Below are positions 16,056 to 56,666 of a stretch of DNA of 64,000 nucleotides, piece after piece. The stretch is from an uncultured delta proteobacterium (GTDB lineage: Bacteria > Myxococcota_A > Polyangia > Haliangiales > Haliangiaceae). Location of the stretch: contig CAVUQH010000024.1 in assembly GCA_963743525.1 (NCBI GenBank), forward strand, positions 65,763 through 129,762. The letters are read 5' to 3'. Position 1 is the stretch's first letter; every line of letters begins with the position of its first letter. The position numbers and the translations under genes are program-made. Under the pieces are notes generated by a model that did no database searches, was not told the origin of the DNA, and saw only the letters and a list, made by a program, of their open reading frames with translations.

Positions 16056-16056
16056 G

Positions 16057-16623
<567 letters not shown>

Positions 16624-16668
16624 ACCCGAACTGCCCGGGGGTGCGCCAATCGGCGGCTTTGCGGCCGC

Positions 16669-17148: not shown

Positions 17149-17155
17149 TGGCCGC

Positions 17156-34438: not shown

Positions 34439-37400
34439 ATGGGGGAGCCGCCGGGCAAGGGTGGGGGTAGCGGGAAGCAGCCGACCACGACGGCGATCGA
34501 CGCCGGCAGCGCACCCACCCTCCCCGGCACCATGCCGACCGAGCCCGGCAGCGAACCCACCATCCCCGGCACCATGCCGACCGAGCCCGGCAGCGCGACC
34601 ACCATCGCCAGTGTCGAGTCCGAGCTGCAGAGCCGACCGCGCCGGCGCAGGTCGCGACCGGCAAGCAACTATCGACGCGGCGACCACATCGATCGCTTCG
34701 TCGTACTCGAGGTGCTCGGCGCCGGCGGCATGGCGGTCGTGCTCTCGGCCTACGATCCGAGCCTGGATCGCCGCGTCGCGATCAAGCTCATGCGCTCCGA
34801 GCTGTGGCGCGCTGCCGGCGTGCGCGGACGTGATCGACTGTTGCGCGAAGCACAGGCGATGGCACGGCTGTCCCATCCGAACGTGGTCACCGTGCACGAG
34901 GTCGGCGCGATCGGCGACGAGGTGTTCATCGCGATGGAGCACGTCGGCGACCGGACGCTGCGCGACCGCATCCGCGAGCTTCGCAGCGCATCACCGTTTT
35001 CCTGGCGGGCCATCGTCGAGCCGTTCTTGCAGGCCGGCCGCGGCCTCGCCGCCGCGCATGACGCCGGCCTGGTGCATCGCGACTTCAAGGCCGAGAACGT
35101 GTTGGTGGGCGACGATGGCCGCGTTCGGGTAACCGACTTCGGTCTCGTGAGCACCGCAGGCGCCGCCGACTCGTCCGGCGACGAGCTCGCCAGCCACGAC
35201 GACCTCGCCGACCTGGCCACGCCCACACCGATCCCGATGTCCGCGACGATCACGCGGACCGGCGCTCTCCTGGGAACTCCGGCGTACATGGCGCCAGAGC
35301 AGACCCGCCACGGCACCGTCAACGGCCGCACCGACCAGTTCTCCTTCTGCGTATCGCTGTGGGAGGCGCTCTACGGCGAGCGGCCGTTCGCCGGGTCGCG
35401 TGTTGGCGAGGTGCGCGAGGAGATCGCCGCCGGGCGTCTCCGCGAGCCACCGACCGAGGCGCGCAGCAAAGTACCGCCGTGGATTCACGAAGCGCTGCTG
35501 CGAGGGCTCTCGCACGATCCGGGTCAGCGCTGGCCGACGATGAACGCGCTGCTCGCGCGCCTGGCGAGCGATCCCGATGCCGCGCGCCGCCAGCGGCGGC
35601 TGGCGCTCCTCGTCGGAGCCGTAATCGTCGCGCTGGCCGCCAGCGTGGTGGTCGCCATCGCACGACGACCGGGCGTCACCGCGCCGGTGTGTGGTGGCGC
35701 GAACGAGGAGATTGCCGCGGTCTGGAACGACACGATCAGGCATCAGATCGGCGAACGATTCGAACGAACGGGTCGCTCCTATGCCGCGGCTACGTTCGAC
35801 CGTGCCGCCCGGCGACTCGACGCATACGCAGATGACTGGGTACGAATGCGCACCGAGGCGTGCAAGGCAACCAACGTGCATCACCGGCAATCGGAGACCG
35901 TGCTCGATCTTCGCATGCGTTGCCTGGATCGCCGTCGGGCGGCACTGGCCGCTACCACCGAGTTGTGGGCGAGCGACGCTTCCGGCCAGACCGTCGATCG
36001 GGCCCTCGATTCACTCGCAGCGCTGCCCGCGCTCGACCGCTGCGCCGATCTGGACGCCTTGACCGCCGCAGTGCCGCCGCCAGAGTCGCCGAAGGCGCAG
36101 CGAACCGCCGAGGATCTGGCGAAGCAGCTCGATCACCTCGATGCCCTCGCCGGTGCGGGTCGGTTCGCCGACGCCTTGCCGGCGGCCAGGGACGTGTCGG
36201 CGCGCGCTCGTCGGCTCGGCTACGCCCCGGTGCTGGCGCGCGCGCTTTACGTCGCGGGCACGCTCGAACACGAGCTCGGTGACGACAAAGCGGCCGAGAC
36301 GACGTTGCGCGAGGCAATCGAGGTCGCGGCGGAGGCACGCGACGACGATCGCGCGGCGCACGCGTGGATCGCGCTCGGGTCGGCGCTGTCCGGTCAAGGG
36401 CGAGACGAAGATGCGCTCGCGCAGCGCACCGGAATGCAGGCGTTCGTGACGCGCGCCGGTGGCAACGAGCTGCTCCGTGCGGCGATGTGGAGCCAGCTCG
36501 GGACCACGGCGTGGAACCTCGGCCGCTACCGCGAGGCCCAGGCTCTCCACGAGCGCGCGCTCTCCGCGCGCGAGAAGTCGCTCGGCGCGAACGCCCCGGA
36601 GGTGGCCGAGTCCCTCGAGGCGCTCGGCAACGTGTTCGCCGACGAGGGTCGCTACGACGACGCGCGCACGCGACTCGAACGCGCGGTGGCGATCCGCGAG
36701 CAAGCGCTGGGCCCGCGCCACCCGAGAACCGCGAGTGCGCGCAACGACCTCGGCATGCTGCTTCGCGACCTCGGCAAGCCCCGCGAGGCCCTGGCGAACT
36801 TCCAGCTCGCGCTCGCGGTGTACGAAGAGATGCTCGGCACCGAGCACGCCGACGTCGGTCGGATCCTGAACAACATCGGCCTGGCCTATTCGGACATGAA
36901 CGACAATGCCGCCGCCGAGCCGGTGTTCCGGCGAGCCCTCGCGATCAAGGAGAAGGCCCTCGGCCCGACCCATCCGAGCACCGCCCTCACGCTCGGCAAC
37001 CTCGGCGCGGTCCTCGTCGAGAGCGGCAAGGCGGCCGAGGCGCTTCCGCTGCTCGAACGGGTCCTCGAGATCCAGCGCACGTCTCTCGCACCGGATCACC
37101 CGAACCTGGCCCTGGCCCACCACACGCTCGGTGCAGCGCTGCGGCTCGATGGCAAATGCCAGCAGGCGATCCCGCACTTCCTCACCGCGAAGAAGATCTG
37201 GGAGACCAAGCTCGGCAAGGATCATCTCCAGACCTCCAGCGCATACTTCGACCTCGGCGTCTGCGATACGGATCTCGGTCACCCGCTGAAGGCGCTGCCA
37301 CTGCTCGAGCGAGCACTCGCCATTCGTGACAAGGCCGGTCGCGCCGGAGCTGCGGCCGAAGCCCGGTGGCAGATCGGACGCGCGCTGTGGGAGTCGGGCA

Positions 37401-37528
37401 AGGATCGCGCACGCGGGCTCGGCCTCGTCCGCGAGGCGCGCATCAAGCTCGCCGGGCTCCGTCAAGCCCGTGAGATCGATGCCTGGCTCGCCGCGCACGA
37501 GCTGCTGGCTCGCAGCATGGCGCGGTGA
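34439..37528 (+). CDS. Ser/Thr protein kinase with Pro/Thr-rich N-terminal extension, one TM segment and extensive C-terminal TPR repeats
   Basis: LGAGGMAVVLSAYD...AIKLM...HRDFKAENVLV...DFGL...GTPAYMAPEQ; TM LALLVGAVIVALAASVVVAIA; many TPR-like units. 1029 aa. Confidence 0.9.
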   Translation: MGEPPGKGGGSGKQPTTTAIDAGSAPTLPGTMPTEPGSEPTIPGTMPTEPGSATTIASVESELQSRPRRRRSRPASNYRRGDHIDRFVVLEVLGAGGMAVVLSAYDPSLDRRVAIKLMRSELWRAAGVRGRDRLLREAQAMARLSHPNVVTVHEVGAIGDEVFIAMEHVGDRTLRDRIRELRSASPFSWRAIVEPFLQAGRGLAAAHDAGLVHRDFKAENVLVGDDGRVRVTDFGLVSTAGAADSSGDELASHDDLADLATPTPIPMSATITRTGALLGTPAYMAPEQTRHGTVNGRTDQFSFCVSLWEALYGERPFAGSRVGEVREEIAAGRLREPPTEARSKVPPWIHEALLRGLSHDPGQRWPTMNALLARLASDPDAARRQRRLALLVGAVIVALAASVVVAIARRPGVTAPVCGGANEEIAAVWNDTIRHQIGERFERTGRSYAAATFDRAARRLDAYADDWVRMRTEACKATNVHHRQSETVLDLRMRCLDRRRAALAATTELWASDASGQTVDRALDSLAALPALDRCADLDALTAAVPPPESPKAQRTAEDLAKQLDHLDALAGAGRFADALPAARDVSARARRLGYAPVLARALYVAGTLEHELGDDKAAETTLREAIEVAAEARDDDRAAHAWIALGSALSGQGRDEDALAQRTGMQAFVTRAGGNELLRAAMWSQLGTTAWNLGRYREAQALHERALSAREKSLGANAPEVAESLEALGNVFADEGRYDDARTRLERAVAIREQALGPRHPRTASARNDLGMLLRDLGKPREALANFQLALAVYEEMLGTEHADVGRILNNIGLAYSDMNDNAAAEPVFRRALAIKEKALGPTHPSTALTLGNLGAVLVESGKAAEALPLLERVLEIQRTSLAPDHPNLALAHHTLGAALRLDGKCQQAIPHFLTAKKIWETKLGKDHLQTSSAYFDLGVCDTDLGHPLKALPLLERALAIRDKAGRAGAAAEARWQIGRALWESGKDRARGLGLVREARIKLAGLRQAREIDAWLAAHELLARSMAR

Positions 37529-39302: not shown

Positions 39303-40871
39303 GTGAACAGGATCGCCAAGCTAGCAGGATTCGTCGTCATCGCGTGCGCCCTCGGATGCGGCCCCGGTCGCAACCAGAACGGCCCGTGCGGCCAGAGCGC
39401 CGACTGCGATGGCGGCGGCACTCCCGGCACCGACGCCCGGCCCGGCACCGACGCCCGGCCCGGCTCCGACGCCCGTCCCGGCACCGCCGACGCGGGCTCC
39501 ACCGACGGGGGCAACGGCTGTCCGGCGCTGGCGGTGGTCGAGGACTCGCCGCTGCCGGTGGAGGACGCGGCCAACGCGCTGGAGTCGACCACGACCAACG
39601 GCTTCGCCGACGACTATGTCTACAACGAGGCCGGCACGCTGAAGATCGGCACGCGCCGCGACTGGGGCGGCACCATCATCTTCTTCGGCATGGACAACGG
39701 CTCGCCCGGGCTCAACAACACCAACGCCATCGACTCGAACGACACGGGGCGCGAGGTCCAGGTCGCGTTCTACGACGTCAACCGCTGGTATCAAAACTGC
39801 GCGTGGAACGCGTCGTGCAACGCCAACCCGTCGCCCACGCAGTGTCCGCAGGAGATGACCTATCTGGGCTGGAACCCGGTCCAGGGCGGCAACCGCTGCA
39901 ACAACGGCTCGGGCATCGACAGCGTGGTGATGAGTGACGGCGCCATCGACGTGACCACCACGCCGCTGTTCTGGAATCCCAACTGGGATCGCACCGACTG
40001 CGACTCGAACGCCTGCAGCAACTCGGCGGTCAACGAGCGGCGCTCCGATGTCGAGGTCAACCAGCGGGTCCGCTTCGTCCGGCCCAACGTCGTCGAGCTG
40101 GCCTACGTCATCACCAACGAGGCCAACCTCGCCCACGCCGCGTCGGCCCACGAGTTCCCCACCGTCTACACCTCGTTCGGCAAGAACGGCACGCCCGACC
40201 TGTACCGGCTGTTCGACTCCAACGAGCACGAGGTCGCGATCGACCAGACGCCGCCCAACGACACCGCGTTCCGCTACAAGAACTTCACCAGTCCGGGCGG
40301 CTGGGTGTCGCTGCAGAACGGCAACCTCGACTACGGCGTCGGCCTCTACTACGAGAGCGGCATGAGCGGGTTCCAGGCCTGGCAGGCCGACAACCCGAAC
40401 TTCAACAACTTCCGCGGGCTGTTCTCGTTCGCCATTCCGGCCTTCGGCCAGGTGCGCGCGCGCTCGTACCTCATCCTCGGCTCCCTCGGCACCATCGCGG
40501 CCGAGGCCCAGTGGCTGGCCGACCATCTGGCTCCCTTCGGCAGCCTCGACGCGCCGACCGCCGACACCGGCGTGTCGGGGACGGTCTCGGTCTACGGCTG
40601 GGCGATGGACAACCGGTCGGTGTCCAGGGTGGAGCTGATCATCGACGGCGGCGCCCCGGTGCAGCTCACCTACGGCGGCAGCCGGCCCGACGTCTGCAAG
40701 GTCTGGCCCGGCTACCCGGCCTGCGCTCACAACAACGTCGGCTACAACGGCAGCTTCGACGCCGCGAGCCTGGCGCCCGACGCGTGCGGCCACATCCTCG
40801 AGATCCGCGCCACCGACGGCGACGGCAACGCCCGCGTCATCGCTCGCCGCCGCGTGTTCCTGGCCAACTAA
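39303..40871 (+). CDS. Large secreted lipoprotein, unknown function (Asn/Asp-rich; repeated DARPGT near the N-terminus)
   Basis: MNRIAKLAGFVVIACALGCGPG (lipobox ALGC); 522 aa; TDARPGTDARPGSDARPGT repeat. Confidence 0.7.
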   Translation: MNRIAKLAGFVVIACALGCGPGRNQNGPCGQSADCDGGGTPGTDARPGTDARPGSDARPGTADAGSTDGGNGCPALAVVEDSPLPVEDAANALESTTTNGFADDYVYNEAGTLKIGTRRDWGGTIIFFGMDNGSPGLNNTNAIDSNDTGREVQVAFYDVNRWYQNCAWNASCNANPSPTQCPQEMTYLGWNPVQGGNRCNNGSGIDSVVMSDGAIDVTTTPLFWNPNWDRTDCDSNACSNSAVNERRSDVEVNQRVRFVRPNVVELAYVITNEANLAHAASAHEFPTVYTSFGKNGTPDLYRLFDSNEHEVAIDQTPPNDTAFRYKNFTSPGGWVSLQNGNLDYGVGLYYESGMSGFQAWQADNPNFNNFRGLFSFAIPAFGQVRARSYLILGSLGTIAAEAQWLADHLAPFGSLDAPTADTGVSGTVSVYGWAMDNRSVSRVELIIDGGAPVQLTYGGSRPDVCKVWPGYPACAHNNVGYNGSFDAASLAPDACGHILEIRATDGDGNARVIARRRVFLAN

Positions 40872-41247: not shown

Positions 41248-41546
41248 CGCCGTGGTATCGAGCAATCGACGTGCCAGCCGCGGTCCGCCGGCAACCCCGC
41301 GTTTCGCGGTCACCACGAGTGTGGCGCCGGTGTGACGTGGGCCGGTGCGGCACACCTGATGTGTACGGCCGGCTCCGCGCCGGCGGGCGCCACGAGTGCT
41401 ACCCTCGCCGCCGTCAAAGGACGAGATGACGGCCACACCCACGACCCCGGTGGTCGCGTGATCCGCAGCTCGGACGCGACCAACCGGCAGTGGTGATGCC
41501 GGCAAACAGGGCGGATCGTTTGCCGGCGCCGGGCGTTGATAGGTGG

Positions 41547-42467
41547 ATGGCCACCCGTGCGACCGCGACCGGATCACTGCTGGCGTTGTGTGTGGCGGCG
41601 TGCTCGTCGCCGCCGGCCGGCCCGAGCGCGACCCGGGAGCCCGATAGCGCGGAGGCCGGCGCCGCCCACGCCGCGGCCGCGGATGACTGGTACACGGTCG
41701 GCGAAAACCAACAGCTGGCCGTGCGGGTCGAGCGGCGGCTCTACCAGCAGGCCGGCAACCCGCACTTCCTGGTCCGCGTGCGGGTGGACAACCACAGCGC
41801 GCACCGGCTCGGTGTCGATCTGCGCGACTACTGGGCCGTCGTCTACCCCAACCAGTGGGGCCCGCTGCGCGAGGATCACCGCTCGGTCATCGACGAGATG
41901 CGGGCCCGCCCGAAGCTCCTCGACGCGGCCCGCTGCGCCGATCTGCGCCAGGCGTTCGGGTCCGGCGATCTCGCCGCCGTGCCCGCCGCCGGCTCGATCG
42001 AGTACTACCGCGAGTTCAACGCCTCGGGCAAAGCCGACGTCAACGCCCAGGCGACCGACCGATACCTGTTCGTCAGCCTGGCCGGCCAGGCCCTGTACAC
42101 CGACGGCACGCGCTGCAGCCAGCTGGCGGCCGGCGATCCGGGCGGCTCGGATCTCGTCATGACGACGCCGGTGCCGTGGGGCCAGGTGCCGGCGAGCGCG
42201 CTGGTCGTCGACGAGGCACAATCCCACGAGATCGCCCGCTCCGTCGCCGGCCAGGCCATGGTCAACCTGGCCGGCAAGAGCGCAGGTCTGACGCCGGGCG
42301 ACGATCGGCAGTGCACCGCCACCCCCGACCACCCGCACTTCTGGAGCTATCGCCCCGCGCAGGCAGTGAACGAGGTGGTCACGAAGCTGAAGTCGCTGTG
42401 CATCGCGATCGGCCCGCACCGGGGGATGAACATCGCCCGCTGGTGCTGCCCGCCCGCGCTGCCCTGA
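41547..42467 (+). CDS. Lipoprotein, unknown function
   Basis: MATRATATGSLLALCVAACSSPP (lipobox VAAC), 306 aa. Confidence 0.6.
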   Translation: MATRATATGSLLALCVAACSSPPAGPSATREPDSAEAGAAHAAAADDWYTVGENQQLAVRVERRLYQQAGNPHFLVRVRVDNHSAHRLGVDLRDYWAVVYPNQWGPLREDHRSVIDEMRARPKLLDAARCADLRQAFGSGDLAAVPAAGSIEYYREFNASGKADVNAQATDRYLFVSLAGQALYTDGTRCSQLAAGDPGGSDLVMTTPVPWGQVPASALVVDEAQSHEIARSVAGQAMVNLAGKSAGLTPGDDRQCTATPDHPHFWSYRPAQAVNEVVTKLKSLCIAIGPHRGMNIARWCCPPALP

Positions 42468-42519: not shown

Positions 42520-43263
42520 CTAGGGACAAACGTTGCACCCGGCGATGGAACTGTCACATCCAGTGGCCACGTCGCAGCCGCTGGGGCAGGTGACGAAGCC
42601 GGGCGGGTTGGGACAGCTCGCGGCCGGATCGCAGGTGACGTCGCACGCGCACGCGCTGCCGCAGTTGACGCCGCCGGAGCACGAGTTGCTGCCGGTGCAG
42701 GTGATCGAGCAGTCGGTGGTGCAGCTGGTGGTGAACATGCACGACGTGTCTCCCGAGCAGGTGACCTGACAGCTGGGAGCCGAGTTGCATGTCAAGCCAC
42801 CACACGACATGTAGCCACCACAGGTGACCGAGCACGGGCCGGCGTTGCACTCGACGCCGAAGAAGCAGCTTCGGTCGCCCAGGCACTGGACGTCGCACGA
42901 CGAAGCGCCGGAGCAGTCGACGTTGCTGGGGCAATCATCGGCGTTGAGGCATTCGACGCGGCAAGGGATGCTGTTGGGGCAGCGGATGACGCCCGCCTGA
43001 TTGGAGCCGATGATCGTGCACACCCCGCCCGGGCAACCGCCGTTGCACTCCGGCGGGCACGGACCGGCGTCAGACGGATCAGCGTCGACGGGGCTTCCGC
43101 CGTCGCCACCAGCGCCGCCGTCGCCTCCGGTCACAGCCCGCGCGTCGATGGTGCCGTTGCCGCCGCCGTCGTCGCGGCCACCGGAGGTCGGGTCGTAGCC
43201 GAACCGGCCACAGGCGGCCAGCGTCAGGCAGGCGATGGCGAGGACTGGGAGCCGAACGATCAC
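42520..43263 (-). CDS. Cysteine-rich lipoprotein (many CxxxC/CxC motifs)
   Basis: GTG start overlaps the upstream TGA (GTGA): (M)IVRLPVLAIACLTLAACG, then CPPECNGGCPGGVCTIIG...CSVTCGGYMSCGGLTCNSAPSCQVTCSGDTSC... Confidence 0.65.
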   Translation of the reverse strand: MIVRLPVLAIACLTLAACGRFGYDPTSGGRDDGGGNGTIDARAVTGGDGGAGGDGGSPVDADPSDAGPCPPECNGGCPGGVCTIIGSNQAGVIRCPNSIPCRVECLNADDCPSNVDCSGASSCDVQCLGDRSCFFGVECNAGPCSVTCGGYMSCGGLTCNSAPSCQVTCSGDTSCMFTTSCTTDCSITCTGSNSCSGGVNCGSACACDVTCDPAASCPNPPGFVTCPSGCDVATGCDSSIAGCNVCP

Positions 43264-43604
43264 GGTTGCTTCACGCGAATCGGGATGCGGAAGGTCAGCG
43301 GCGAGGCCTGGTGGCCAAACGTGGTACCGCGGGCGACTGCGAGCAGGCATTCGCCCAGCTGCTGGTGCTCGGCATCGGCGGGCACCAGCTCGGCGGCGGT
43401 CACGGCGCCGCCGGCATCGACGTGGAAGCGGATGGCCAGCTCTTTGGCGGCAGCGGCGGCCGCGGGGTAGCGGTCGAAGCAGCGGGTGACCAGCGCGTGG
43501 CGGCTGCGGAAACGCGCCGTGAGGCTCTCGGCGGTGGTCGTCTTGTGCGGCGTGGTCGCCGGCGGCGACGGCGATGCGGGCGCGGGGTCAGGCGACTCGT
43601 TCAA
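43260..43604 (-). CDS. Small Pro/Ser/Thr-rich protein with TonB-C-terminal-like segment
   Basis: TTG start overlaps the kinase stop (TTGA). ...AAKELAIRFHVDAGGAVTAAELVPADAEHQQLGECLLAVARGTTF resembles the TonB_C fold pattern. Confidence 0.4.
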   Translation of the reverse strand: MNESPDPAPASPSPPATTPHKTTTAESLTARFRSRHALVTRCFDRYPAAAAAAKELAIRFHVDAGGAVTAAELVPADAEHQQLGECLLAVARGTTFGHQASPLTFRIPIRVKQP

Positions 43605-45040
43605 CGGGTGCGGCCGGGTCGTCCGCAGACGGCGGAGGATCGCCGGCCGGGTTCATGGTCACGTCGCCGCGCACCATCACCACGGTCGGCTCGGCCGTCG
43701 AACTCGCGGCCGAGGTGGGCGCGCGTGATGGCCACGGCGGCGCCACCGGCAATGGCGATGGCGATGGCCAGGGGCCACAGCGACCGGCGCCGCGCTGGCT
43801 GGGTCGCGCCGATCGTCTCGGCCGGCGGGTTCGGCTCGACGACCTCGCGCGCGTCGAGCAGGCGCGTCTCCGCCGTGTGCACCTCGGCCGGCGCCGGATC
43901 GTCCACGCGGGTCGCGCCGGTCGCGTCGGCCAGCTTGCCGCTGCGCAGTGCGTCCTGCAGCTGGGTGTTCTCCAGCTCGCTGGGCGACAGCGGCAGGACG
44001 ATGCGGCGCGGCAACTCGCCCAGATCGCCGTAGCGCGACCACGCGTCTTCGCGCGCCTGCAGGCTGTCGGTGCCGAGGAGATCGGGCAGCCGCGGGTCGT
44101 GGAAGTCGGCCGCGATGTTCTCGCGAAAGCGGTCGTCGGCATCGGCGGCTTCGGGGTAGGCCTCGCCCAGCGCCTCGGCGAACGCCCCCGCGCTGGGATA
44201 GCGTCCCTCCGGGTGCTTGCACAGCCCCTTGTGGATGACGTTGGCCAGGCGGACCGACACGTCGTCGCGCACCGAGCGGATCGGATCGGGATCGTGGCGA
44301 AGCGCGCGCGCCGCGGTCTGCACCGCGTCGGCGGCCGCGAACGGGTTCTTTCCGGCGAGCAGCTGGTAGAGGGCCACCGCCGCGCTGTAGACGTCCGAGG
44401 CTGGCGACGGCGTCGTCTTGCCGAACAGCTCCGGCGCCATGTACGCGAAGGTGCCCTTCAGCGTGGTGTCGCCGGTTGACGTGTCGGTGACCTCGGTGTT
44501 GGTGCGGGCGACGCCGAAGTCGGCCAGCTTGACCAACCCCTGCACGTCGACCAGGACGTTGGACGGCTTGACGTCGCGGTGGACGATGCCCAGCGGCGAG
44601 CCCTGCGAGTCGCGCAGCGTGTGTGCGTAGTGCAGCGCCTCGAGCATTCGCTGCATGACGTAGAGCGCCAGCTCGACCGGCAGGTTGCCGCGCGACTTGC
44701 GCACGAAGCGGCTCCACTGCTGCAACGTGTAGCCGTGCACGTAGTCGAGCACCATCACGTAGTCGCCGTCCTCCTCGGCGAAGTCAACGATGCTGACGAT
44801 GCCCGGGTGGCGCAGGCTGGACAGGATGCGCGCCTCGCGCGCGAACAGCTGATCGGCCAGCTCACCGCCCGCGCGCAGCGAACGCTTGATGACCACCGGC
44901 TTGACGAAGCCGGCGGCGCCCTCGGCGCGGGCCAGGTACACGGTTCCCATGCCGCCAGAGGCCAACGCCCTGACGACTCGGTAGTGGCCCAGCACCATCT
45001 GGCCGAGCTCCTGGGTGTGACCCGCTTTGGCTGCGCTCAT
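43601..45040 (-). CDS. Ser/Thr protein kinase with C-terminal TM segment
   Basis: LGHYRVVRALASGGMGTVYLA...VVIKR...HRDVKPSNVLV...DFGVAR...GTFAYMAPE; TM LWPLAIAIAIAGGAAVAI. Confidence 0.9.
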   Translation of the reverse strand: MSAAKAGHTQELGQMVLGHYRVVRALASGGMGTVYLARAEGAAGFVKPVVIKRSLRAGGELADQLFAREARILSSLRHPGIVSIVDFAEEDGDYVMVLDYVHGYTLQQWSRFVRKSRGNLPVELALYVMQRMLEALHYAHTLRDSQGSPLGIVHRDVKPSNVLVDVQGLVKLADFGVARTNTEVTDTSTGDTTLKGTFAYMAPELFGKTTPSPASDVYSAAVALYQLLAGKNPFAAADAVQTAARALRHDPDPIRSVRDDVSVRLANVIHKGLCKHPEGRYPSAGAFAEALGEAYPEAADADDRFRENIAADFHDPRLPDLLGTDSLQAREDAWSRYGDLGELPRRIVLPLSPSELENTQLQDALRSGKLADATGATRVDDPAPAEVHTAETRLLDAREVVEPNPPAETIGATQPARRRSLWPLAIAIAIAGGAAVAITRAHLGREFDGRADRGDGARRRDHEPGRRSSAVCGRPGRTR

Positions 45041-46569
45041 CGCTTCGAAGGAGACCGTCTCACATAGTAATGGACGGCGCCCCCCTGGCGCACGATCTTC
45101 ACCGCGATGGCGCGGCGCCCGGCGGGCAGCGCGACCTGCGAGTGAAAGCGGTAATGCCCGTCCAGCGGCACGTCGACGCCATCGATGGACACCCGCGATC
45201 CAACTGTAGCCAAACCGCGCACCTCGACGCCCCCCGGACCAAAGGTCGCGGCGTCGAGCTGCGCCACCGGCGCGGCGTTGTCGAAATCGAGCACGACGCG
45301 GGTCTCCGGCGAGCGCGCGCCACCCGGGATCGCCATGCGCACGCGATAGCTGCCCTCGGCCAGCTTGCCCGAGCTCGAGACGTATCGCGGCTTGCTCGAG
45401 TCGTGGCGCTGCACGCGACCGTGCGCATCGGTGATGGTCAGCTCGTACTTCGGCGCCGATGGGGCGTCGGGCCAGACGAAGGTGATCGTCGGCTTGCGGT
45501 TCTGGTACAGCAGCCGGTACGTGCGCCCGTCGATGTCAACCGAGTTGGCCGGGGCGCGGGTCTTGACCCGCCGCTGGCCGGCGTCGCGCAGCACGCGAAT
45601 CGTCCCGCGCGACCGACTGTTGTCGGCAGCGGGCACCAGCGCGCCGTCGGTCTGACAGTAGACGCGGTAGCGATTGCGCCCGACCGGAAGCGTGACCGGC
45701 ACGTTCTCCTGACCGCGGTAGTAGTGCCGCCCGCGGCCGTGGGCGACCTGCACCACTGCCACGCCATCGCACAGGCCGGAGACCGGGATACGAACGTGCG
45801 CGGGCGGCCGGGCGACGTGCACGGTCGAGGTCTCCCCCGCGGGCAGCGCGATGTCGATCGCGGTCGGCGGCGCGCTGATGGGCACCTTCTTGCCGCGCAG
45901 CGTCGGCCCGCGTTCGTCGTCGGTCGTCGGATCAGTCGCCGGCTGGGACGCGGCGTCGATCGGCGCGACGGCCACCGCCTGGGCGGCGTCTTGCACGCCC
46001 GCATCCGCGGTGCTGCTCGGCGCTTGCACGCGCACGTCGCCACCGCTGTTGACGTCCACCTGATCGCCGGCGGCCAGCGCCACTGGCTCGGCGCCCTCGC
46101 GTTCGATACGGGCGGTGCCGACGACGACCTCGAGGTGGGTGTCGCGACCGCGGCGCTGCAAGCGGACCCGAGATCCGGCGCCCAGCCGGGCCGGGCCGCT
46201 GGCCGTGTCGACCACCAGGGCGGCATCGCCGGTCTCGATCTCGGCCTCGCCGGTGGCCAGGGTGATCGACTGCAGACCATCGGCCTGCCCGAAACGAACC
46301 AGCGAGGTCGCGCCCATCGCCAGCACACCGCCGCCGCGGATCATGCGCAGGCGCGCCGACGATGCCGCGCCGGTGCGCACGCCGTCCCCGCGGTGGTAGC
46401 GCGCGCCCGGTTGATTGGCCTGCCAGGCCTCGGGCTCGGCGCGAGGCGCGCCCTCGACCTGCCCGTTGGCGTCGGTCAGCTCGGCCAGGCTGGGCTCGGA
46501 CCGGCCGCCACAAGCGGCCGTCACCAGGGTCAGTGCGAAGCCCACTGCCAGCCGGCGCTGCGACCTCAA
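45037..46569 (-). CDS. FecR-domain lipoprotein
   Basis: TTG start with RBS AGGAACGG: (M)RSQRRLAVGFALTLVTAACGG; FecR-like ITLATGEAEIETGDAALVVDTASGPARLGAGSRVRLQRRGRDTHLEVVVGTARIEREGAEPVALAAGDQVDV. Confidence 0.65.
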   Translation of the reverse strand: MRSQRRLAVGFALTLVTAACGGRSEPSLAELTDANGQVEGAPRAEPEAWQANQPGARYHRGDGVRTGAASSARLRMIRGGGVLAMGATSLVRFGQADGLQSITLATGEAEIETGDAALVVDTASGPARLGAGSRVRLQRRGRDTHLEVVVGTARIEREGAEPVALAAGDQVDVNSGGDVRVQAPSSTADAGVQDAAQAVAVAPIDAASQPATDPTTDDERGPTLRGKKVPISAPPTAIDIALPAGETSTVHVARPPAHVRIPVSGLCDGVAVVQVAHGRGRHYYRGQENVPVTLPVGRNRYRVYCQTDGALVPAADNSRSRGTIRVLRDAGQRRVKTRAPANSVDIDGRTYRLLYQNRKPTITFVWPDAPSAPKYELTITDAHGRVQRHDSSKPRYVSSSGKLAEGSYRVRMAIPGGARSPETRVVLDFDNAAPVAQLDAATFGPGGVEVRGLATVGSRVSIDGVDVPLDGHYRFHSQVALPAGRRAIAVKIVRQGGAVHYYVRRSPSKR

Positions 46570-48020
46570 TGGGCGCCGTTCCTGCGCAGCTCGAGGTTGA
46601 TCACGGTGACGCCGTTTTGGTCGACCTTCAGCTCCCGCTTCTGCCGGGCGTAGCCGCGGGCGCGAACGACCACCGTGTAGTTGCCGGGCGCCACGTTGAC
46701 GCGGAAGCTGCCGTCGTCGCCGGTGCGAAGGGTGCGGCCGAGCGGGGCAATGGTGACTTGGGCGCGCGCGATCGGCTTGCCCGACAGACTGCGCACCAGT
46801 CCGCGAATCTGCCCTGGCGGCAGCGCCCGCTCGAGCCGCACGTCGACCGCGACCGGGTGGTCGGGGCCGACCTCCGCTGTGGTGGTCACCGTGCGGTGGC
46901 CGTCGGCGATGATCTCGAGCTCGACGGTTCCCACCGGCACGCCGGTCAGCTCGAAGCGGCCGTCCTGATCCGTGGTGGTCTCGCGCGCGCCCGCGCGCAC
47001 CGTCGCACCGGCGATCGGCACGCCCGCCGAATCGACGACGCGCCCGGCGACCGTGCCCAGAGCCGGCGGCGGCGGCGGTGGCACCACGATCTCCCCACCG
47101 ACAGAGCGTGCCGGGCGATCGAAACGATAGGTCGCGCCCAGCATGGCCAGCATGCGCGGCTCCACCGGGACCAGCGGCGCGCCCACCGCGATTTCGGGCG
47201 TCGCCGAGACGCCAACTTGCACCGTGCCGTGCAGCCACAGGTCGTGGGCGACACGCAACCGTGCCCCGGCCGACACCCGCATCGGCGACACCGCCACCCG
47301 CGGTGCGTCGGCGCCGACCAACAGATCCCAGCTCCAGTCACCGACCAGCGCCAGTGATCCGCGACGCCAGCCGACACCGGCGCCCAGGGTCACCGCGTTG
47401 GCGTCACTGGCACCCAGCGCCATCCGATCAGCGAGGCTCAGCCGATCCGGATCAGCGACGCTGTTGCTGCTGCGATCGAGACGCCCGCCGGCGTTGACCG
47501 CGACGGTGAGCTGGTCGGTGGCGCGATAGCTGGCGATGCCCCGGGCTTCGACTGACGTGCCGTCCAGCGACAGCGCCGTGCTGGCGGGGAACCACAGCCC
47601 GGCCTCGCCGCCGATCGCCAGACGTTCACCGAGCGGCCGCACCAGGCGCACCCGCAGCCGCGGATCACCGACCCAGCCGTCGTCGGTCCCCGACGGGGTC
47701 GCGATGTGCCGGTCGTAGCGACCGTCGAGCCGCACGCCGACCGCCAGCCACGATCGAATCCGATAGCTCGCCGCCAACCGACCGGCCAGCCGGTGGTGGC
47801 GATCGTTCGCCCCGAGCACCGCGCCGCGATAGCCGTAGCCGCTCCCCGCCGACAGCGTCAGCAGTCCGGTCATCGGCGCGCCGGTGGCCACGCGCACCAA
47901 TCCGGGCAGCCCGTCGAGGCTGTCGCTGCCGCCATCGTCGGCGCGCGCACGACCACCGCCGGCGGTCGCCAGCGCGATCGCGGCAACGACGGCGGTCTTG
48001 ACGACCGGTCCCGGGCCCAT
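46566..48020 (-). CDS. Secreted protein: N-terminal beta-barrel-like region plus two carboxypeptidase-regulatory-like (CarboxypepD_reg) domains
   Basis: Signal MGPGPVVKTAVVAAIALATAGG; GTVAGRVVDSAGVPIAGATVRAGARETTTDQDGRFEL and GQIRGLVRSLSGKPIARAQVTIAPLGRTLRTGDDGSFRVNVAPGNYTVVVRARGY. Confidence 0.7.
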   Translation of the reverse strand: MGPGPVVKTAVVAAIALATAGGGRARADDGGSDSLDGLPGLVRVATGAPMTGLLTLSAGSGYGYRGAVLGANDRHHRLAGRLAASYRIRSWLAVGVRLDGRYDRHIATPSGTDDGWVGDPRLRVRLVRPLGERLAIGGEAGLWFPASTALSLDGTSVEARGIASYRATDQLTVAVNAGGRLDRSSNSVADPDRLSLADRMALGASDANAVTLGAGVGWRRGSLALVGDWSWDLLVGADAPRVAVSPMRVSAGARLRVAHDLWLHGTVQVGVSATPEIAVGAPLVPVEPRMLAMLGATYRFDRPARSVGGEIVVPPPPPPALGTVAGRVVDSAGVPIAGATVRAGARETTTDQDGRFELTGVPVGTVELEIIADGHRTVTTTAEVGPDHPVAVDVRLERALPPGQIRGLVRSLSGKPIARAQVTIAPLGRTLRTGDDGSFRVNVAPGNYTVVVRARGYARQKRELKVDQNGVTVINLELRRNGAH

Positions 48021-48120
48021 CGGTCTGTGATCTTACCAGGTTGCGGGTCGATTCCGGGGACTTCCACACCATGCTAGTCTCGCGGCCGCCCGGACCCCCA
48101 ACCGGGCAAGGAGAAACGGA

Positions 48121-50220
48121 ATGGGACGTACTTTCACGCTTTGTTGTTCGCTGGCGATGTTCGCCTTCGCCTGCTCCTCGAATCCCACACCGACCCCGGT
48201 TCAGCCCACGCCCCCGGCCACGGCTCCGGACGCGGCGCCCAGCGGGCCCCCGGTGGTCGAGAAGTCGCTCGACCAGGTCGGGCTGTCGGAGGCCGCGCTG
48301 GATCGCAGTGCCGATCCCTGTGACGACTTCTACCAGTTCGCCTGTGGCGGCTGGCTGGCCAACACCGAGATCCCGGCGGACCGGACCAGCTGGAGCCGCG
48401 GCTTCAGCGAGATCCACGATCGCAACCAGGACACCCTGCACACGATCCTCGAGGCCGCCGCCGCCGGCGGCAAGGACCCGGATCCCGGCACCAAGAAGCT
48501 GGGCGACTTCTACGGCTCGTGCATGGACGAGGCCGCGATCGAAAAGGCCGGGCTGTCGGCGATCGAGCCGTGGCTGAAGCAGGCGCGCAAGGTGCGCAAC
48601 AAGAAGCAGATCGCGGCGCTGGTCACCGACCTCCAGGCCCACGGCGTCGGTGTCCTGTTCGGCTTCTTCGTCAACCAGGACATGAAGGACCCGACCAAGA
48701 TGGTCGCCCAGGTGTGGCAGGGCGGCCTGGGCCTTCCCGATCGCGACTACTACCTGAAGGACGACGACAAGACCAAGGCGATCCGCACCGCCTACACCGA
48801 GCACGTGGCCAAGATGCTGCAGCTCGCCGGCGCCAAGCCGGCCGCCGCCAAGCGCGGCGCTGCCAACGTGCTGGCGTTCGAGACCGAGCTGGCCAAAGCG
48901 TCCAAGCCCCGGGTCGAGATGCGCGATCCCAAGGGCCTCGACAACCGCCTCGACCTGGCCGGCGTCGAGAAGGCGGCGCCAAACTTCGACTGGAAGTCGT
49001 TCTTCGAGGGCATGGGCAAGCCCGGCTGGACCGCGATCAACGTGTTGACCCCCAAGTTCCTCGACCAGATCAACACGATGTTGACCAAGACCAAGCCGGC
49101 GGAGTGGCGCAGCTACCTCGAGTGGCACATTCTCGACAGCGAGGCGGGCCGCCTGCCCAAGGCGTTCGTCAACGAGAACTTCGCCATGACCAAGCAGCTC
49201 ACCGGTCAGGAGAAGCTGCGCGACCGGTGGAAGCGCTGCGTCGCCGCCACCGACAACGCCCTGCCCGACCTGCTGGGACCGGCCTTCGTCAAGGCCAAGT
49301 TCAGCGGCGACGCCAAGGCTGCGGCCCTGAACATGGTCCACGCGATCAGCGGCGCCTTCGGTCAGTCGCTGCTCAGCGAGGCGTGGATGGACGCCGCCAC
49401 GCGCAAGCTGGCCGAGCAGAAGCTGAGCATGATGGCCTACCTGATCGGCTATCCCGACAAGTGGAAGACCTACGACTTCACCGTCAGCCGCGACAACTAC
49501 GCCGCCAACGCCATCGCCGCCGACCACTTCCAGGTGGCCTACGACATGAGCAAGCTGGGCAAGCCGGTCGACCGCACCGAGTGGAGCATGAGCGCGCCCA
49601 CGGTCAACGCCTACTACAACCCCAGCATGAACCACATGGTCTTCCCGGCCGGCATCCTGCAGCCGCCGTTCTACGATCCCAAGGCGTCGGCCGCGGTCAA
49701 CCTGGGCGGCATGGGCATGATCGTCGGCCACGAGCTGACCCACGGCTTCGACGACCAGGGCTCGCAGTTCGACGGCAACGGCGCGCTGAAGAACTGGTGG
49801 ACGCCGGCGGTGGCCAAGAGCTTCGACAGCAAGAAGCAGTGCGTGATCGATCAGTACGACGCCTACGAGCCGCTGCCGGACGTGCACCTCAACGGCAAGC
49901 TGACCCTGGGCGAGAACATCGCCGACATGGGCGGCGTCAAGATGGCGTTCGAGGCCTACCGGGCCATGCGCAAGGACGCCAAGGAGAAGGTGCTGGCCGG
50001 CGGCTTCACCGAGGACCAGCAGTACTTCCTGGCGGTGGGCCAGGCCTGGTGCACCAAGATCCGCCCGCAGATGCAGCGCATGTACATCAACGTCAACCCG
50101 CACTCGCCGGCGCGGTTCCGCGTCGACGGCTCGCTGTCCAACCTGCCCGCCTTCAGCGAGGCGTTCCAGTGCAAGAAGGGCACGAAGATGAACCGCGAGA
50201 ACATGTGCACGGTCTGGTAG
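48121..50220 (+). CDS. M13-family zinc metallopeptidase (neprilysin/PepO-like), lipoprotein
   Basis: MGRTFTLCCSLAMFAFACSS; NAYYNP; VGHELTHGFD (HExxH); GENIADMGG. 699 aa. Confidence 0.93.
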   Translation: MGRTFTLCCSLAMFAFACSSNPTPTPVQPTPPATAPDAAPSGPPVVEKSLDQVGLSEAALDRSADPCDDFYQFACGGWLANTEIPADRTSWSRGFSEIHDRNQDTLHTILEAAAAGGKDPDPGTKKLGDFYGSCMDEAAIEKAGLSAIEPWLKQARKVRNKKQIAALVTDLQAHGVGVLFGFFVNQDMKDPTKMVAQVWQGGLGLPDRDYYLKDDDKTKAIRTAYTEHVAKMLQLAGAKPAAAKRGAANVLAFETELAKASKPRVEMRDPKGLDNRLDLAGVEKAAPNFDWKSFFEGMGKPGWTAINVLTPKFLDQINTMLTKTKPAEWRSYLEWHILDSEAGRLPKAFVNENFAMTKQLTGQEKLRDRWKRCVAATDNALPDLLGPAFVKAKFSGDAKAAALNMVHAISGAFGQSLLSEAWMDAATRKLAEQKLSMMAYLIGYPDKWKTYDFTVSRDNYAANAIAADHFQVAYDMSKLGKPVDRTEWSMSAPTVNAYYNPSMNHMVFPAGILQPPFYDPKASAAVNLGGMGMIVGHELTHGFDDQGSQFDGNGALKNWWTPAVAKSFDSKKQCVIDQYDAYEPLPDVHLNGKLTLGENIADMGGVKMAFEAYRAMRKDAKEKVLAGGFTEDQQYFLAVGQAWCTKIRPQMQRMYINVNPHSPARFRVDGSLSNLPAFSEAFQCKKGTKMNRENMCTVW

Positions 50221-50289
50221 ACCAGACCTCCGACTGATCCCGACATCACCGGGGCCGCAGCCGAGAGGCGCGGCCCCGTTTCTTTCGGC

Positions 50290-52602
50290 TCAGCGAATGC
50301 CCGCCTTCTTCTTGGCGTAGCGCACGGCCGCGTCGAGCACCTCGTCCTTGCCCGCACGGATGCCAGCAATCGTCGGCGCCACCCGCAGGTCCGGCTGCAA
50401 ACCGACCCGCTGCAGCTGCCGACCGTCGGCATGGCGGACATCGTGCCCGGTGAAGAAGATGTAGATTCCCCCGGGCAGACAGGTGTTGGTCACGTCGCCG
50501 TTGGCTCCCGAGCTGGGTGTACCGATGAACTCGGTACCGTTGGCTGCCTCGAAGAAGAGCCCGGTGTGCTCGGCCTGGCTGATCGTCGATTGATTGATCA
50601 GCATGAACGTCTTGCCCGTGTACTTCCACTCGTTGCTCTTCGGCAGCGGCTGGGTGAACAGGTAGCGGCTGGTCCGGTCGTCGGGCTCCAGCCCGGACAA
50701 CAGACGTCTCTGAAAGGTCGCCGCTACCGTGGGAAACGGATGGCGATTCAACCGTGGCGCGATCGACCAGGCGGTTCCTTTCGGATAGCCGCGCATATCG
50801 AAGATGATCGCCCTGGTCCGCTTGAGCGCCTCGAACATGGCGTCGACCTGAGCTACCTGCAGAGCTCGAAGATCGACGTATCCGAGCTCGGGCTCGAGCA
50901 GTCGGTACGGCGGCTTCCCGTCTGCATCGGCGTCGCTGGACTTCCTGCGGACGATCGACACCTCCCTGCTGGAGCCATCGGCACCGCGCAGACGCAGACG
51001 GACACTCGAGCCCTCGGGCGCCTCCAACGTCGCGGACAACAAGCGCGCGGCCAGCGCATCTGGCGTCAACGCCGTGACCCGCGGGCGGACGTGCGCGACC
51101 GCGTCCGCGAAGGAAACCCCGTCGATCGCCTCGATGATGTCGCCGGCGACGGCACCGGCCTTCTTGCCCTCGACCCCCGGGTCGGTAACCACGGGCTGGC
51201 CCTCCACTATCTCGGCCTCGAGTGGCGGAACACCTCGCAAGAACACGTCGTGGTCGGCGATCACCGTGGTATGCGAGTCGGAGATCCGCGCGGCGACGCG
51301 CGCCACGGCCATCTGATACTCCTCCTTGCTGCCGGCGCCAGATAGCTCGGTGATGGCCCGCGGCAACACCGCGTCCCAGTCGCCGATCAAGTGGAGATAC
51401 GGGTAGAACAGGTCGATTACGTTCCACAGCCGGTAGGCGGCGAGCACACGCAACGAACGATCGGGAAATGCAGCGTCCGCATAGGTCTCGTCGGGCCGCC
51501 AGTGAGCCACCGGCGTGGCACCCGGCTTCGAATCCTTGCGCGGGCGTGACTTGCCGCTGGCAGCACGCATGGCCGCCCGCATCGCTGCGTCCTCCTTGCC
51601 GCTCTTCCCCTCGGCCACCACGATGTCGGGGCGCAGCGACAGCGGCGCGCCATGCCATATGGCTTGCGACGTACGCACCGTAGCGCGCCAGCCCTCGCCG
51701 AGATCCACGGAGGTGGTTGCGACGAGGCCGCTGTCGTCGACCTGCATCCCAGGCGCGACGATGACGCCGCGTCCTTGCGCCTGGAGCGCCACGGCGATCG
51801 CTGGAAGAGGTGAATGTTCGCCCAGCACGAACACGGCCCTTTTCGGGGCCGTCTTCGCGGCCGGCTGCACGAGCTCCGCGTCCCTCGTCACGAAGGCCGA
51901 GAAGTAACCGCCCGATGTGCTTCCGTGTTGAGGTTGATACCCGGAGTGGAAGGGAGCGGTCGCGGCTGGCAACTCGGTAGGCTGGTTGACCAGAGCACCG
52001 CGCACGTAGGGAAAGCCGTAGGGGACCCAGTTGTCCTCCGCGACGTGTCGCATGTCGAAGATGACCGCTGGCGCGGCGGCGATCTTTGGCGCCAAGATGC
52101 GAAAGGCACGGAACGAGTCCATGTCACTGGCCGCTCCGAGGTCGACCACGAGGATGCCGTCGTTCACCTCGTGCGTAGTCACTGGCGCTGGCGCCGACAC
52201 CGCAGGAGGATGGTCTTCCTCCACCCGTGTCTGTGGATCACCCAGCACGGCAAGCATCTCCTTCACCGCGTTGACGTAGGCCTTGGTGCTGTCAGCTTTG
52301 TTGACCGCATCGATGGCCTTCCGCACCGCCCCATCCCAGTCGATGTTTCGATACGCGAGGTAAGGATGGAGATAGCGAACCACGCCGAAGAGCCGGCCCA
52401 GATGCGTCAGCCGCTGCACCGACTGCGGATAGGTTGACAGCGCGGGCAGCGGTGGCAGCTCGGGCGGAGACCAACGCGACGCCGCGGGCGCCGGCGCGGG
52501 CGCAGGTGGCGACGGTGCGGCGACCGGTGGTGGAGTGGGCCTCGGCCTCGGCGCGCCACACGACATGAGCAGAGATACAGCGACGAGAGAGATACTGCGC
52601 AT
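50290..52602 (-). CDS. S41-family (tail-specific/tricorn-like) peptidase lipoprotein, duplicated domain architecture
   Basis: MRSISLVAVSLLMSCGAP (lipobox LMSC; RBS AGGA); two segments with S41-like motifs (...AIIFDMRGYPKGTAWS..., ...VIFDMRHVAEDNW...). Confidence 0.8.
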   Translation of the reverse strand: MRSISLVAVSLLMSCGAPRPRPTPPPVAAPSPPAPAPAPAASRWSPPELPPLPALSTYPQSVQRLTHLGRLFGVVRYLHPYLAYRNIDWDGAVRKAIDAVNKADSTKAYVNAVKEMLAVLGDPQTRVEEDHPPAVSAPAPVTTHEVNDGILVVDLGAASDMDSFRAFRILAPKIAAAPAVIFDMRHVAEDNWVPYGFPYVRGALVNQPTELPAATAPFHSGYQPQHGSTSGGYFSAFVTRDAELVQPAAKTAPKRAVFVLGEHSPLPAIAVALQAQGRGVIVAPGMQVDDSGLVATTSVDLGEGWRATVRTSQAIWHGAPLSLRPDIVVAEGKSGKEDAAMRAAMRAASGKSRPRKDSKPGATPVAHWRPDETYADAAFPDRSLRVLAAYRLWNVIDLFYPYLHLIGDWDAVLPRAITELSGAGSKEEYQMAVARVAARISDSHTTVIADHDVFLRGVPPLEAEIVEGQPVVTDPGVEGKKAGAVAGDIIEAIDGVSFADAVAHVRPRVTALTPDALAARLLSATLEAPEGSSVRLRLRGADGSSREVSIVRRKSSDADADGKPPYRLLEPELGYVDLRALQVAQVDAMFEALKRTRAIIFDMRGYPKGTAWSIAPRLNRHPFPTVAATFQRRLLSGLEPDDRTSRYLFTQPLPKSNEWKYTGKTFMLINQSTISQAEHTGLFFEAANGTEFIGTPSSGANGDVTNTCLPGGIYIFFTGHDVRHADGRQLQRVGLQPDLRVAPTIAGIRAGKDEVLDAAVRYAKKKAGIR

Positions 52603-52670
52603 CGCCGGCATCCTACACCCGCACGACCGTGCACGAGATGCGACGCATTCTCGCGGGTCGCGTCTGTCGC

Positions 52671-53123
52671 TCAGCCCATGCCGTGAATCGTCAGTACGTC
52701 GCCGCTCAGCGTCCAGTCGTACTGGGTCAGCGGCAGGCGAGCCGGGCCGCGCTCGACCGTGCCGTCGAGCGCAAACATCGAGCCGTGACACGGGCAGGTG
52801 AAGCCTTGCCCATCCGGCTTCACCTCACAGCCCTGGTGGGTGCACTTGGTGGTGGTGATCATGAACTGCATCGACGAGGTCTGCGTGACCGCCAGCGGAT
52901 CGGCGAGGCCGACGTTGACCAACACCGTCTTGCCGAGGGTCGCGAGGCCCGGGTAGTCGGACAGGTTGATGTCGTAGTCGCCGCTGAGCGTGTCGCCGCC
53001 GCCGGTGCCGAGACAGCCGGCCAGGGTCGGCAGCACTGCCAGCGCGCCGGAGGTGGCCAGGAACCGGCGCCGGTTCATGCACCATCGATCGTTCCCTCGA
53101 TCATTCTTGGGGTCGTCGCTCAT
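52671..53123 (-). CDS. Rieske [2Fe-2S] domain protein, Tat-signal lipoprotein
   Basis: MNRRRFLATSGALAVLPTLAGC (twin-arginine motif plus lipobox); CTHQGC ... CPCHGS Rieske cluster ligands. Confidence 0.85.
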   Translation of the reverse strand: MSDDPKNDRGNDRWCMNRRRFLATSGALAVLPTLAGCLGTGGGDTLSGDYDINLSDYPGLATLGKTVLVNVGLADPLAVTQTSSMQFMITTTKCTHQGCEVKPDGQGFTCPCHGSMFALDGTVERGPARLPLTQYDWTLSGDVLTIHGMG

Positions 53124-53255
53124 GTAGGACTCCTGGCTACGGGTTCGCGCTCACGCCTCCCAACCCAGGACCACTGTCCAACCCGCGCGCATTCCCCCGA
53201 CTGGTGCAACCCGAGCGCTCTGCTGCTGTCAATCGGGGGGATAGTGGCGTCGCGT

Positions 53256-54308: not shown

Positions 54309-54350
54309 TCGGTCAGAACGAACGCCGCCGGACGAGGCTATGATGCGCCG

Positions 54351-56634: not shown

Positions 56635-56666
56635 GATAGAAAGATGCGCGGCGTCCGGAGGCACGG

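Follow-up and report, generated by a model that had tools for sequence, protein, structure and literature searches.

The minus-strand block at positions 42520 to 48020 of a 64,000-nucleotide stretch of contig CAVUQH010000024.1, which originates from an uncultured member of the Haliangiaceae and is referred to in its full length as the window, probably represents a three-gene cassette of the Polyangia. In the reading that we favour, an outer-membrane barrel protein and a FecR-fold lipoprotein are encoded together with a membrane-anchored Ser/Thr kinase whose gene is interrupted by two T's and whose periplasmic arm would serve in signalling across the envelope. The region has a GC content of approximately 70% and contains five open reading frames (ORFs), labelled here G1 to G5, with lengths given in amino acids (aa):

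46566-48020, minus strand: G1, barrel protein, 484 aa
45037-46569, minus strand: G2, FecR-fold lipoprotein, 510 aa from TTG
43601-45040, minus strand: G3, kinase ORF as found, 479 aa from ATG
43260-43604, minus strand: G4, TonB_C-like ORF, 114 aa from TTG, comprising the end of a Pro-rich linker and a TonB_C-like (AgmX/PglI-type) C-terminal periplasmic kinase domain
42520-43263, minus strand: G5, Cys-rich lipoprotein, 247 aa from GTG

The original prediction had described these ORFs as a five-gene operon in which every junction is a four-nucleotide start/stop overlap of the form NTGA, with a fixed stoichiometry of the five partners. All four quartets are indeed present on the minus strand (TTGA at 46569-46566, ATGA at 45040-45037, TTGA at 43604-43601 and GTGA at 43263-43260), each consisting of the stop codon of one ORF and a possible start codon of the next ORF, and the domain calls were also right, the kinase being a complete Hanks type with one transmembrane (TM) helix and G4 being TonB_C-like. 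However, judged from the comparison with related loci, the four quartets are not equivalent, and the ancestral operon comprised two junctions rather than four. Those between G1 and G2 and between G2 and the kinase are kept in Polyangia, whereas the kinase/G4 junction is a frameshift by-product and the G5 junction not ancestral. The conserved unit thus consists of three genes and not of five, and since G4 is part of the kinase and G5 is not a conserved member, the fixed stoichiometry of five partners falls as well.

The comparison is based on 39 related loci, 34 of which are genome loci retrieved with a G2 profile and five of which were obtained from exact look-ups. All 34 genome loci belong to metagenome-assembled genomes of Polyangia (Haliangiales, Kofleriaceae, Polyangiaceae and Sandaracinaceae); loci from metagenomes were covered in addition. 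The kinase and a G4-type domain share one stop-to-stop ORF in each of the 24 independent related loci in which both occur, and only the window deviates from this. L037, which is the nearest relative (86-88% nucleotide identity), encodes a 579-aa kinase in which the kinase region is followed by the TM helix, the segment QPTVVMVRGDVTMNP, a Pro-rich spacer and the G4 domain. G3 itself is a bitopic kinase (PF00069 Pkinase, 143.5 bits versus a gathering score of 31.7) with legible catalytic motifs in its translation (Gly-rich loop SGGMGTV, VIK, HRDVKPSN, DFG, APE), which qualifies it as a member of the Hanks-type Ser/Thr kinases. A global DNA alignment to L037 (87.6% nucleotide identity) contains only two frame-breaking indels, near positions 43703 and 43613, and the kinase gene is composed of the following parts:

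43703-45040, minus strand: intact kinase part in frame A, with the kinase domain (residues 20-281), a conserved cytoplasmic juxtamembrane region and RRR plus TM helix (LWPLAIAIAIAGGAAVAIT), recognised by the Pfam match and by alignment to the L037 and L001 kinases
43701-43702, minus strand: first frame-breaking insertion, TT in GAGTTCG, where one T restores the frame; from the alignment to L037 and the restoration test
43605-43700, minus strand: third-frame kinase segment (S)TAEPTVVMVRGDVTMNPAGDPPPSADDPAAPV, from three-frame translation compared with the L037 and L001 kinases
43601-43604, minus strand: second frame-breaking insertion, identical with the 'TTGA junction' (CGTTGA), where taking one T out (43604/43603) joins the third-frame segment to G4

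Past the first insertion, the annotated kinase ORF reads approximately 34 out-of-frame, Arg-rich codons up to the TGA at 43603-43601, while the peptide AEPTVVMVRGDVTMNPAGDPPPSADDPAAPV is coded in the third frame, which neither G3 nor G4 uses. It is this third-frame segment that carries the periplasmic juxtamembrane strand motif found throughout the family (TVVMVRGDVTM; 43686-43654, minus strand). Deletion of both T's (43702/43701 and 43604/43603) in the restoration test resulted in a 592-aa ORF that is 85.5% identical from end to end to the L037 kinase. Because deleting two T's rebuilds the full kinase, the annotated tail of G3 is out of frame and G4 is the severed sensor domain. The alignments indicate that the kinase/G4 'junction' lies inside one ancestral ORF, split by two frame-shifting insertions, and that the TTGA at 43604-43601 is a by-product of the frameshift, with the inserted T belonging to the quartet itself.

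The G4 domain shows a ratio of nonsynonymous to synonymous divergence (dN/dS) from L037 of 0.23, similar to those of G1 (0.21) and G2 (0.29), and the break is therefore either recent or artefactual. We place the probability that the two T's are real slightly above even and that of an assembly error just below even. If they are real, the kinase copy of this genome was recently disabled or uncoupled from its sensor. A split that is purely an assembly or sequencing artefact, leaving the organism with an intact 592-aa kinase and a working cassette, we judge to have somewhat less than an even chance. It would agree with two single insertions of the same base only approximately 98 nt apart, whose removal restores the full ORF, with the perfect conservation of the downstream part and with the 46 nt around the strand motif, which are identical to L037. 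In contrast, none of the five other genes aligned to L037 (approximately 11 kb surrounding the break) contains a frame-breaking indel, other long ORFs of the window are unbroken (GyrA with 895 aa, kinases with 1323 and 1053 aa), and TT is no long homopolymer. From these aligned and long intact genes it follows that the assembly is not generally indel-prone, while a local error remains compatible with them. Programmed frameshifting was rejected as an explanation: it would require two separate +1 shifts, no slippery sequence or stop-codon/Shine-Dalgarno context was found, and the ORF is continuous in the relatives. Two other triplets of abutting ORFs in the window (12564-14041 and 15495-17226) were also considered as frameshifted genes and turned out to be ordinary genes (atpZ/atpI/atpB-like; a cNMP-binding protein and MoaC).

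G4 had been taken for a small, separate Pro-rich TonB-C-like protein. The TonB_C-like character is retained, but the separate gene is not. NF033768 (myxo_SS_tail) is matched by all 31 aligned family members at E<=0.01 (best 1.3e-10), TIGR01352 (tonB_Cterm) by 25 of these 31 at the same threshold and PF03544 by four. The G4 of the window itself scores 23.8 bits with NF033768 (E 3.7e-5; curated cut-off 40 bits) and 22.8 bits with TIGR01352 (E 8.9e-5; cut-off 27.1). The top five matches in a profile search of the PDB with the G4 domain are TonB C-terminal domains, with weak E-values of 0.03-0.6. A HMMER search of the whole library identified 468 representatives with a G4 domain; among the 150 matches listed of these 468, the domain is C-terminal in all cases, 67 are at least 500 aa long and 61 contain kinase motifs, and the short matches inspected resemble kinase fragments. 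Only G4 itself was recovered in a word-indexed homolog search, which returned no other stand-alone copy, the family having come from the full HMMER search. A free G4 could not reach the periplasm because its translation contains no signal peptide; a TM helix is missing from it as well, and no Shine-Dalgarno-like sequence was found on reading the region ahead of its TTG. Two Cys are invariant in the family, which suggests a periplasmic place for the domain. This pair is predicted to form a disulfide (Cys42-Cys86 of the 114-aa ORF). By comparison with the relatives, G4 is thus the C-terminal periplasmic domain of the kinase and an independent gene in none of them. Five separate coupled genes, with G4 and G5 as independent partners in fixed stoichiometry, are highly improbable. 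All four NTGA quartets exist and the public annotation calls the 114-aa ORF a gene, but G4 is fused to the kinase in each of the 24 relatives, the strand motif lies in a frame used by neither ORF, G4 has neither an export signal nor a ribosome-binding sequence nor a second stand-alone copy, and neither the nearest relative nor any other related locus contains G5.

The periplasmic arm is similarly built throughout the family. Its Pro-rich spacer contains 8-25% Pro, and wherever the TM helix was located (26 of 27 kinase ORFs) a hydrophobic strand motif is found 10-15 residues past it, with variants including TVVMVRGD, LVVIEK, EVVFVEA, PVVVVQR and PIVLVAER among others. In the closest clade, the motif holds an RGD triplet. 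Unlike the N-terminal anchor of TonB, the membrane anchor of the kinase comes after a kinase region of 440 residues, and no ExbB/ExbD-like gene, as would be expected for a TonB motor, is conserved near the cassette.

Mapping with hidden Markov models revealed the order G1-G2-kinase in most loci, kinase-G1-G2 in six and G1 divergent from G2-kinase in three, so that linkage survives both a permuted order and a divergent G1. When all flanking ORFs were clustered, G1, G2 and the kinase were the only conserved neighbours. The conserved unit is a three-gene cassette, restricted to Polyangia (Myxococcota) as far as sampled. A check of gene-order conservation, which had been proposed together with the five-gene operon, thus supports the order of G1, G2 and the kinase but neither a separate G4 nor the membership of G5. 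In several related loci a second, more distant Ser/Thr kinase gene is located directly beside the cassette (L028 9848-10732, L029 10548-11432, L001 11520-12608 (minus strand)).

G1 consists of a signal peptide, an N-terminal ALPGxxRV motif, a 12-stranded outer-membrane beta-barrel (approximately residues 54-300), a Pro-rich linker and two C-terminal CarboxypepD_reg domains (PF13620, two copies, 108.5 bits versus a gathering score of 32.3). The predicted model shows the features expected of a 12-strand barrel of the outer membrane, i.e. a signal peptide, an even-stranded, antiparallel and closed barrel and an aromatic end of the last strand. Its best structural matches are FapF, COG4313, KdgM, NanC and the beta-domains of autotransporters, while the CarboxypepD_reg fold matches the transthyretin-like domains of carboxypeptidase D and the 'NTE' domain of SusC. 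The description of G1 as a secreted beta-barrel/CarboxypepD_reg protein is thus borne out by the barrel fold and the two PF13620 domains. Given the even number of strands, the two CarboxypepD_reg domains are expected to face the periplasm. Ahead of the first strand, and following the signal peptide, the family shares the motif D..ALPG[LV]xRVxxAxP (approximately 47905-47930, minus strand; residues ~31-39), a candidate docking strand or plug.

In G2, a lipoprotein signal peptide with an invariant Cys20 is followed by a FecR-fold domain (approximately residues 29-182), a disordered Ala/Asp/Pro linker (184-218) and approximately three Ig-like beta-sandwich domains (225-505). Taking either PF04773 or the FecR fold as diagnostic, G2 belongs to the FecR-domain proteins, and both its fold and its lipoprotein signal agree with the FecR-domain lipoprotein initially proposed. 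Because the lipoprotein Cys is at position 20 and the FecR fold starts at approximately residue 29, neither an anti-sigma domain nor a TM helix could be accommodated, and none was found in G2. Pfam scans of the neighbours, which returned kinases, peptidases and ABC transporter genes, and clustering of the flanks detected no cognate extracytoplasmic function (ECF) sigma factor, anti-sigma domain or STN-domain TonB-dependent transducer near the cassette. The gene content agrees with the suspected pairing of a FecR protein with a kinase rather than with an ECF anti-sigma factor, since neither an ECF sigma factor nor an anti-sigma domain is found alongside G2.

The two junctions that are kept among the relatives, and a competing start of the kinase, are located as follows:

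46566-46569, minus strand: G1/G2 overlap TTGA, kept as NTGA among relatives
45037-45040, minus strand: ATGA, in which the stop of G2 overlaps the more upstream of two possible kinase starts, NTGA in 15 of 23 independent loci
44996-45012, minus strand: rival kinase start, comprising AGGAG (45012-45008), a 9-nt spacer and ATG at 44998-44996 (Met15)

Of 24 independent related loci, 22 have an NTGA at the G1/G2 junction, which was confirmed for L001 from called genes, and the quartet is retained at 30-50% protein identity despite switching of the start codon between ATG, GTG and TTG. The TTG start of G2 is in register with the N-termini of homologs and with an invariant lipobox Cys, and the public gene call for G2 is the identical 510-aa protein. 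This overlap is real and more than chance. The spacing between G2 and the kinase is more variable outside the 15 loci with NTGA, ranging from -17 to +2 nt in seven loci and amounting to a 236-nt gap in one (L004). Outside the cassette, the gene calls of L001, L002 and L037 contain no 4-nt overlap among 17 same-strand neighbour pairs. Owing to these counts for the two junctions and for the pairs outside the cassette, the first two NTGA overlaps can be regarded as a conserved feature, consistent with translational coupling. An alternative is that the overlaps have no functional meaning and reflect the common abutment of genes in compact high-GC operons, maintained by chance and phylogenetic inertia. 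Where prokaryotic genes overlap, they do so most often by four bases; at 70% GC, TGA dominates as stop codon and ORFs remain open upstream, and the drift in G2/kinase spacing points in the same direction. However, the persistence of the G1/G2 quartet in divergent proteins with changing start codons, together with the absence of such overlaps from all 17 pairs outside, makes this alternative unlikely in our view.

An alternative downstream start codon with a good ribosome-binding site, which would speak against an overlap, was found for the kinase (AGGAG and ATG 44998). The TTG start of G2 is supported. The deposited annotation takes ATG 44998, such that the 465-aa product and not the 479-aa product is on public record, and the kinases of the nearest relatives are likewise called from the equivalent of Met15. 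Two candidate kinase starts, the ATGA at 45040 versus the ATG at 44998, are thus to be considered. The 45 nt between them (15 codons; 44996-45040, minus strand) differ from L037 at a single position, with a synonymous divergence from L037 elsewhere of approximately 0.33. This near-identity suggests a constraint at the nucleotide level, for example a ribosome-binding site or a coupling element, and fits with either kinase start.

G5 is a Cys-rich, repetitive lipoprotein with internal repeats of 30, 60, 63 and 93 nt and a GC content of 0.67. In a BLASTN comparison with L037, positions 50220-43257 and 42474-41513 of the window align, and the approximately 780 bp in between correspond exactly to G5. 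None of the 39 related loci contains a G5 homolog, and Pfam, NCBIfam and PDB sequence searches gave no match. A homolog with 40% identity is present on a soil-type metagenome contig (L040, 2242-2871), where it is not adjacent to a kinase; the other metagenome match is a short fragment, and neither of the two sheds light on the function of G5. The signal of G5 comprises 18 residues, like that of the L040 homolog, and the GTG start is plausible. The proposed Cys-rich lipoprotein with a GTG start is thus acceptable with respect to start codon and signal, but not as a member of a conserved operon, given its absence from L037 and all 39 related loci. No mobile-element boundaries were seen around G5. 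It is an accessory, lineage-specific gene that was added after the kinase stop and lies outside the conserved cassette.

From domain content, topology and synteny we infer how the cassette might function. The TonB-like arm of the kinase would span the periplasm and dock by beta-strand augmentation on a complex of G1 and G2 at the outer membrane. Candidate sites for this docking are the FecR fold and, in G1, the CarboxypepD_reg domains or the ALPGxxRV strand near the N-terminus. An event at the outer membrane would alter this contact and thereby the activity of the kinase towards cytoplasmic substrates, the net effect being cell-surface signalling with a kinase output in place of an anti-sigma/ECF output. 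That Polyangia possess such a trans-envelope route, in which a TonB-armed Hanks kinase would read the state of the G1/G2 complex by docking via TonB-box-like strands and phosphorylation would replace the anti-sigma/ECF switch, is a tentative proposal that we consider rather doubtful in this specific form.

Several observations weigh against the favoured reading as a whole. The contact among the three proteins is a prediction from sequence. The G2 of the window reaches no Pfam FecR score, and its G4 lies below both NCBIfam cut-offs. The strand motif of the kinase and the ALPGxxRV motif of G1 resemble TonB boxes only with respect to what we take to be the TonB-box consensus. For five loci (L005, L012, L014, L015 and L018), the 8 kb preceding G2 did not yield a G1, so that the barrel protein might be dispensable or have its gene in another place. 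No conserved kinase substrate, FHA protein or ECF sigma factor is located near the cassette, which for the substrate speaks against a signalling route of this kind. Finally, the species is seen on a single contig, and mutation and assembly error are both possible explanations for the break.

The cassette could also be a transport or secretion device, with G1 as a FapF- or COG4313-like channel for a substrate, G2 as periplasmic adaptor or cargo and a kinase arm that energises or gates the channel, in the way that GltG/GltJ or TonB are coupled to a proton-driven motor, the kinase domain being regulatory. Structurally, the barrel is matched best by channels for secretion or uptake, Oar, a TonB-dependent transporter that contains a CarboxypepD_reg domain, is responsible for the secretion of a protein in Myxococcus (PMC6434023), and GltG, which has the same design of TM helix, Pro-rich stretch and TonB_C domain, relays motor force (PMC3169522). 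Such a function is nevertheless distinctly unlikely, as no ExbB/ExbD-, TolQ/R- or AglRQS-type motor gene and no cargo is conserved beside the cassette, and the presence of a complete kinase on the cytoplasmic side is more suggestive of signalling as the output.

In classic cell-surface signalling, FecR-fold domains bind the signalling domains of receptors. The cassette differs from the FecA-FecR-FecI and PupB-PupR-PupI systems in several respects: its FecR-fold protein is a lipoprotein without anti-sigma domain or TM helix, its barrel has 12 strands and no plug, STN or TonB-dependent-receptor domain, no ECF sigma factor is found nearby, and the output is a Hanks kinase fused to a TonB-like arm. 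The kinase has the design of GltG (PglI) and GltJ (AgmX) of the Myxococcus xanthus gliding machinery, in which one TM helix and a Pro-rich spacer likewise connect a signalling domain in the cytoplasm to a TonB_C-like domain of the NF033768 type; 15 of 31 family members match the GltG model and eight of 31 the GltJ model. GltG, however, carries an FHA domain in front of its TM helix, Pro-rich stretch and TonB_C domain (PMC3169522) where the cassette protein has a kinase, there are no glt or agl neighbours, and the sequence of the window remains under the model cut-offs. In SusC and Oar, the TonB box is adjoined by CarboxypepD_reg 'NTE' domains, for which a role in TonB specificity has been proposed (PMC7782687, PMC6434023), whereas in G1 these domains are C-terminal and duplicated, and the barrel is small, with 12 instead of 22 strands and without a plug. 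With FapF, COG4313, KdgM/NanC and autotransporter barrels, G1 shares only 9-16% identity; it matches no Pfam family in its barrel, and the C-terminal CarboxypepD_reg pair is unique to G1. A FecR-like protein together with a conserved protein kinase has been described for ECF267 neighbourhoods (bioRxiv 10.1101/2019.12.11.873521), and for PknS-EcfK, a Hanks kinase with an ECF sigma factor, a transmembrane Hanks kinase in envelope-related signalling has been described (PMC13147305); in contrast to both, the cassette is devoid of a sigma factor, TPR or anti-sigma domain. M. xanthus MXAN_2063 is a FecR-domain lipoprotein of unknown function (PMC8844925). A literature search for this combination of genes retrieved no description, MXAN_2063 and ECF267 being nearest, and the cassette is thus undescribed in the literature searched.

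With respect to its surroundings, the block is flanked by a divergent M13 peptidase gene (48121-50220, plus strand) and a convergent ORF (41490-42467). The 100 bp between G1 and the peptidase gene, whose divergent arrangement is also present in L037, form the presumed promoter region of the cassette, as judged from the ORF layout:

48021-48120: 100-bp spacer separating the divergent G1 and M13 peptidase genes

A consensus scan for sigma-70 promoters and internal terminators gave no result, which is weak evidence in a myxobacterium. Further copies of G1, of G2 or of the G4 domain were not detected in the 64-kb window. Approximately 4.1 kb (50221-54336) between the M13 peptidase and ABC-transporter genes are absent from L037; they contain an ORF for an 833-aa S41-peptidase-like protein (50290-52791, minus strand) and a Rieske-domain ORF (52671-53150, minus strand). 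Unrelated to the cassette, positions 39303-40871 (plus strand) encode a 522-aa lipoprotein with a Gly/Asp/Ala/Pro-rich linker, many Cys and a C-terminal Big_7 domain. Three more Ser/Thr kinase genes are found in the window (28343-32314, 34367-37528 and 56640-57782), one with AAA_16, one with TPR repeats and one short. Such a density of kinases is typical of Polyangia.

For genome annotation, the block demonstrates that frameshifts can partly create a pattern in which all junctions overlap; in the public record, the kinase is truncated and its sensor domain figures as an orphan 'gene' of 114 aa. For the Polyangia, the cassette, which is present in dozens of uncultured members, joins a FecR fold, CarboxypepD_reg domains and a TonB_C-like domain with a eukaryotic-like kinase. 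If its parts interact as inferred here, the cassette would represent a novel means by which Gram-negative cells relay information from the outer membrane to the cytoplasm. Myxobacteria encode hundreds of kinases with varied sensor domains, and the proposed arrangement, if true, would provide a defined sensor module for one family within this large and mostly uncharacterised kinome.

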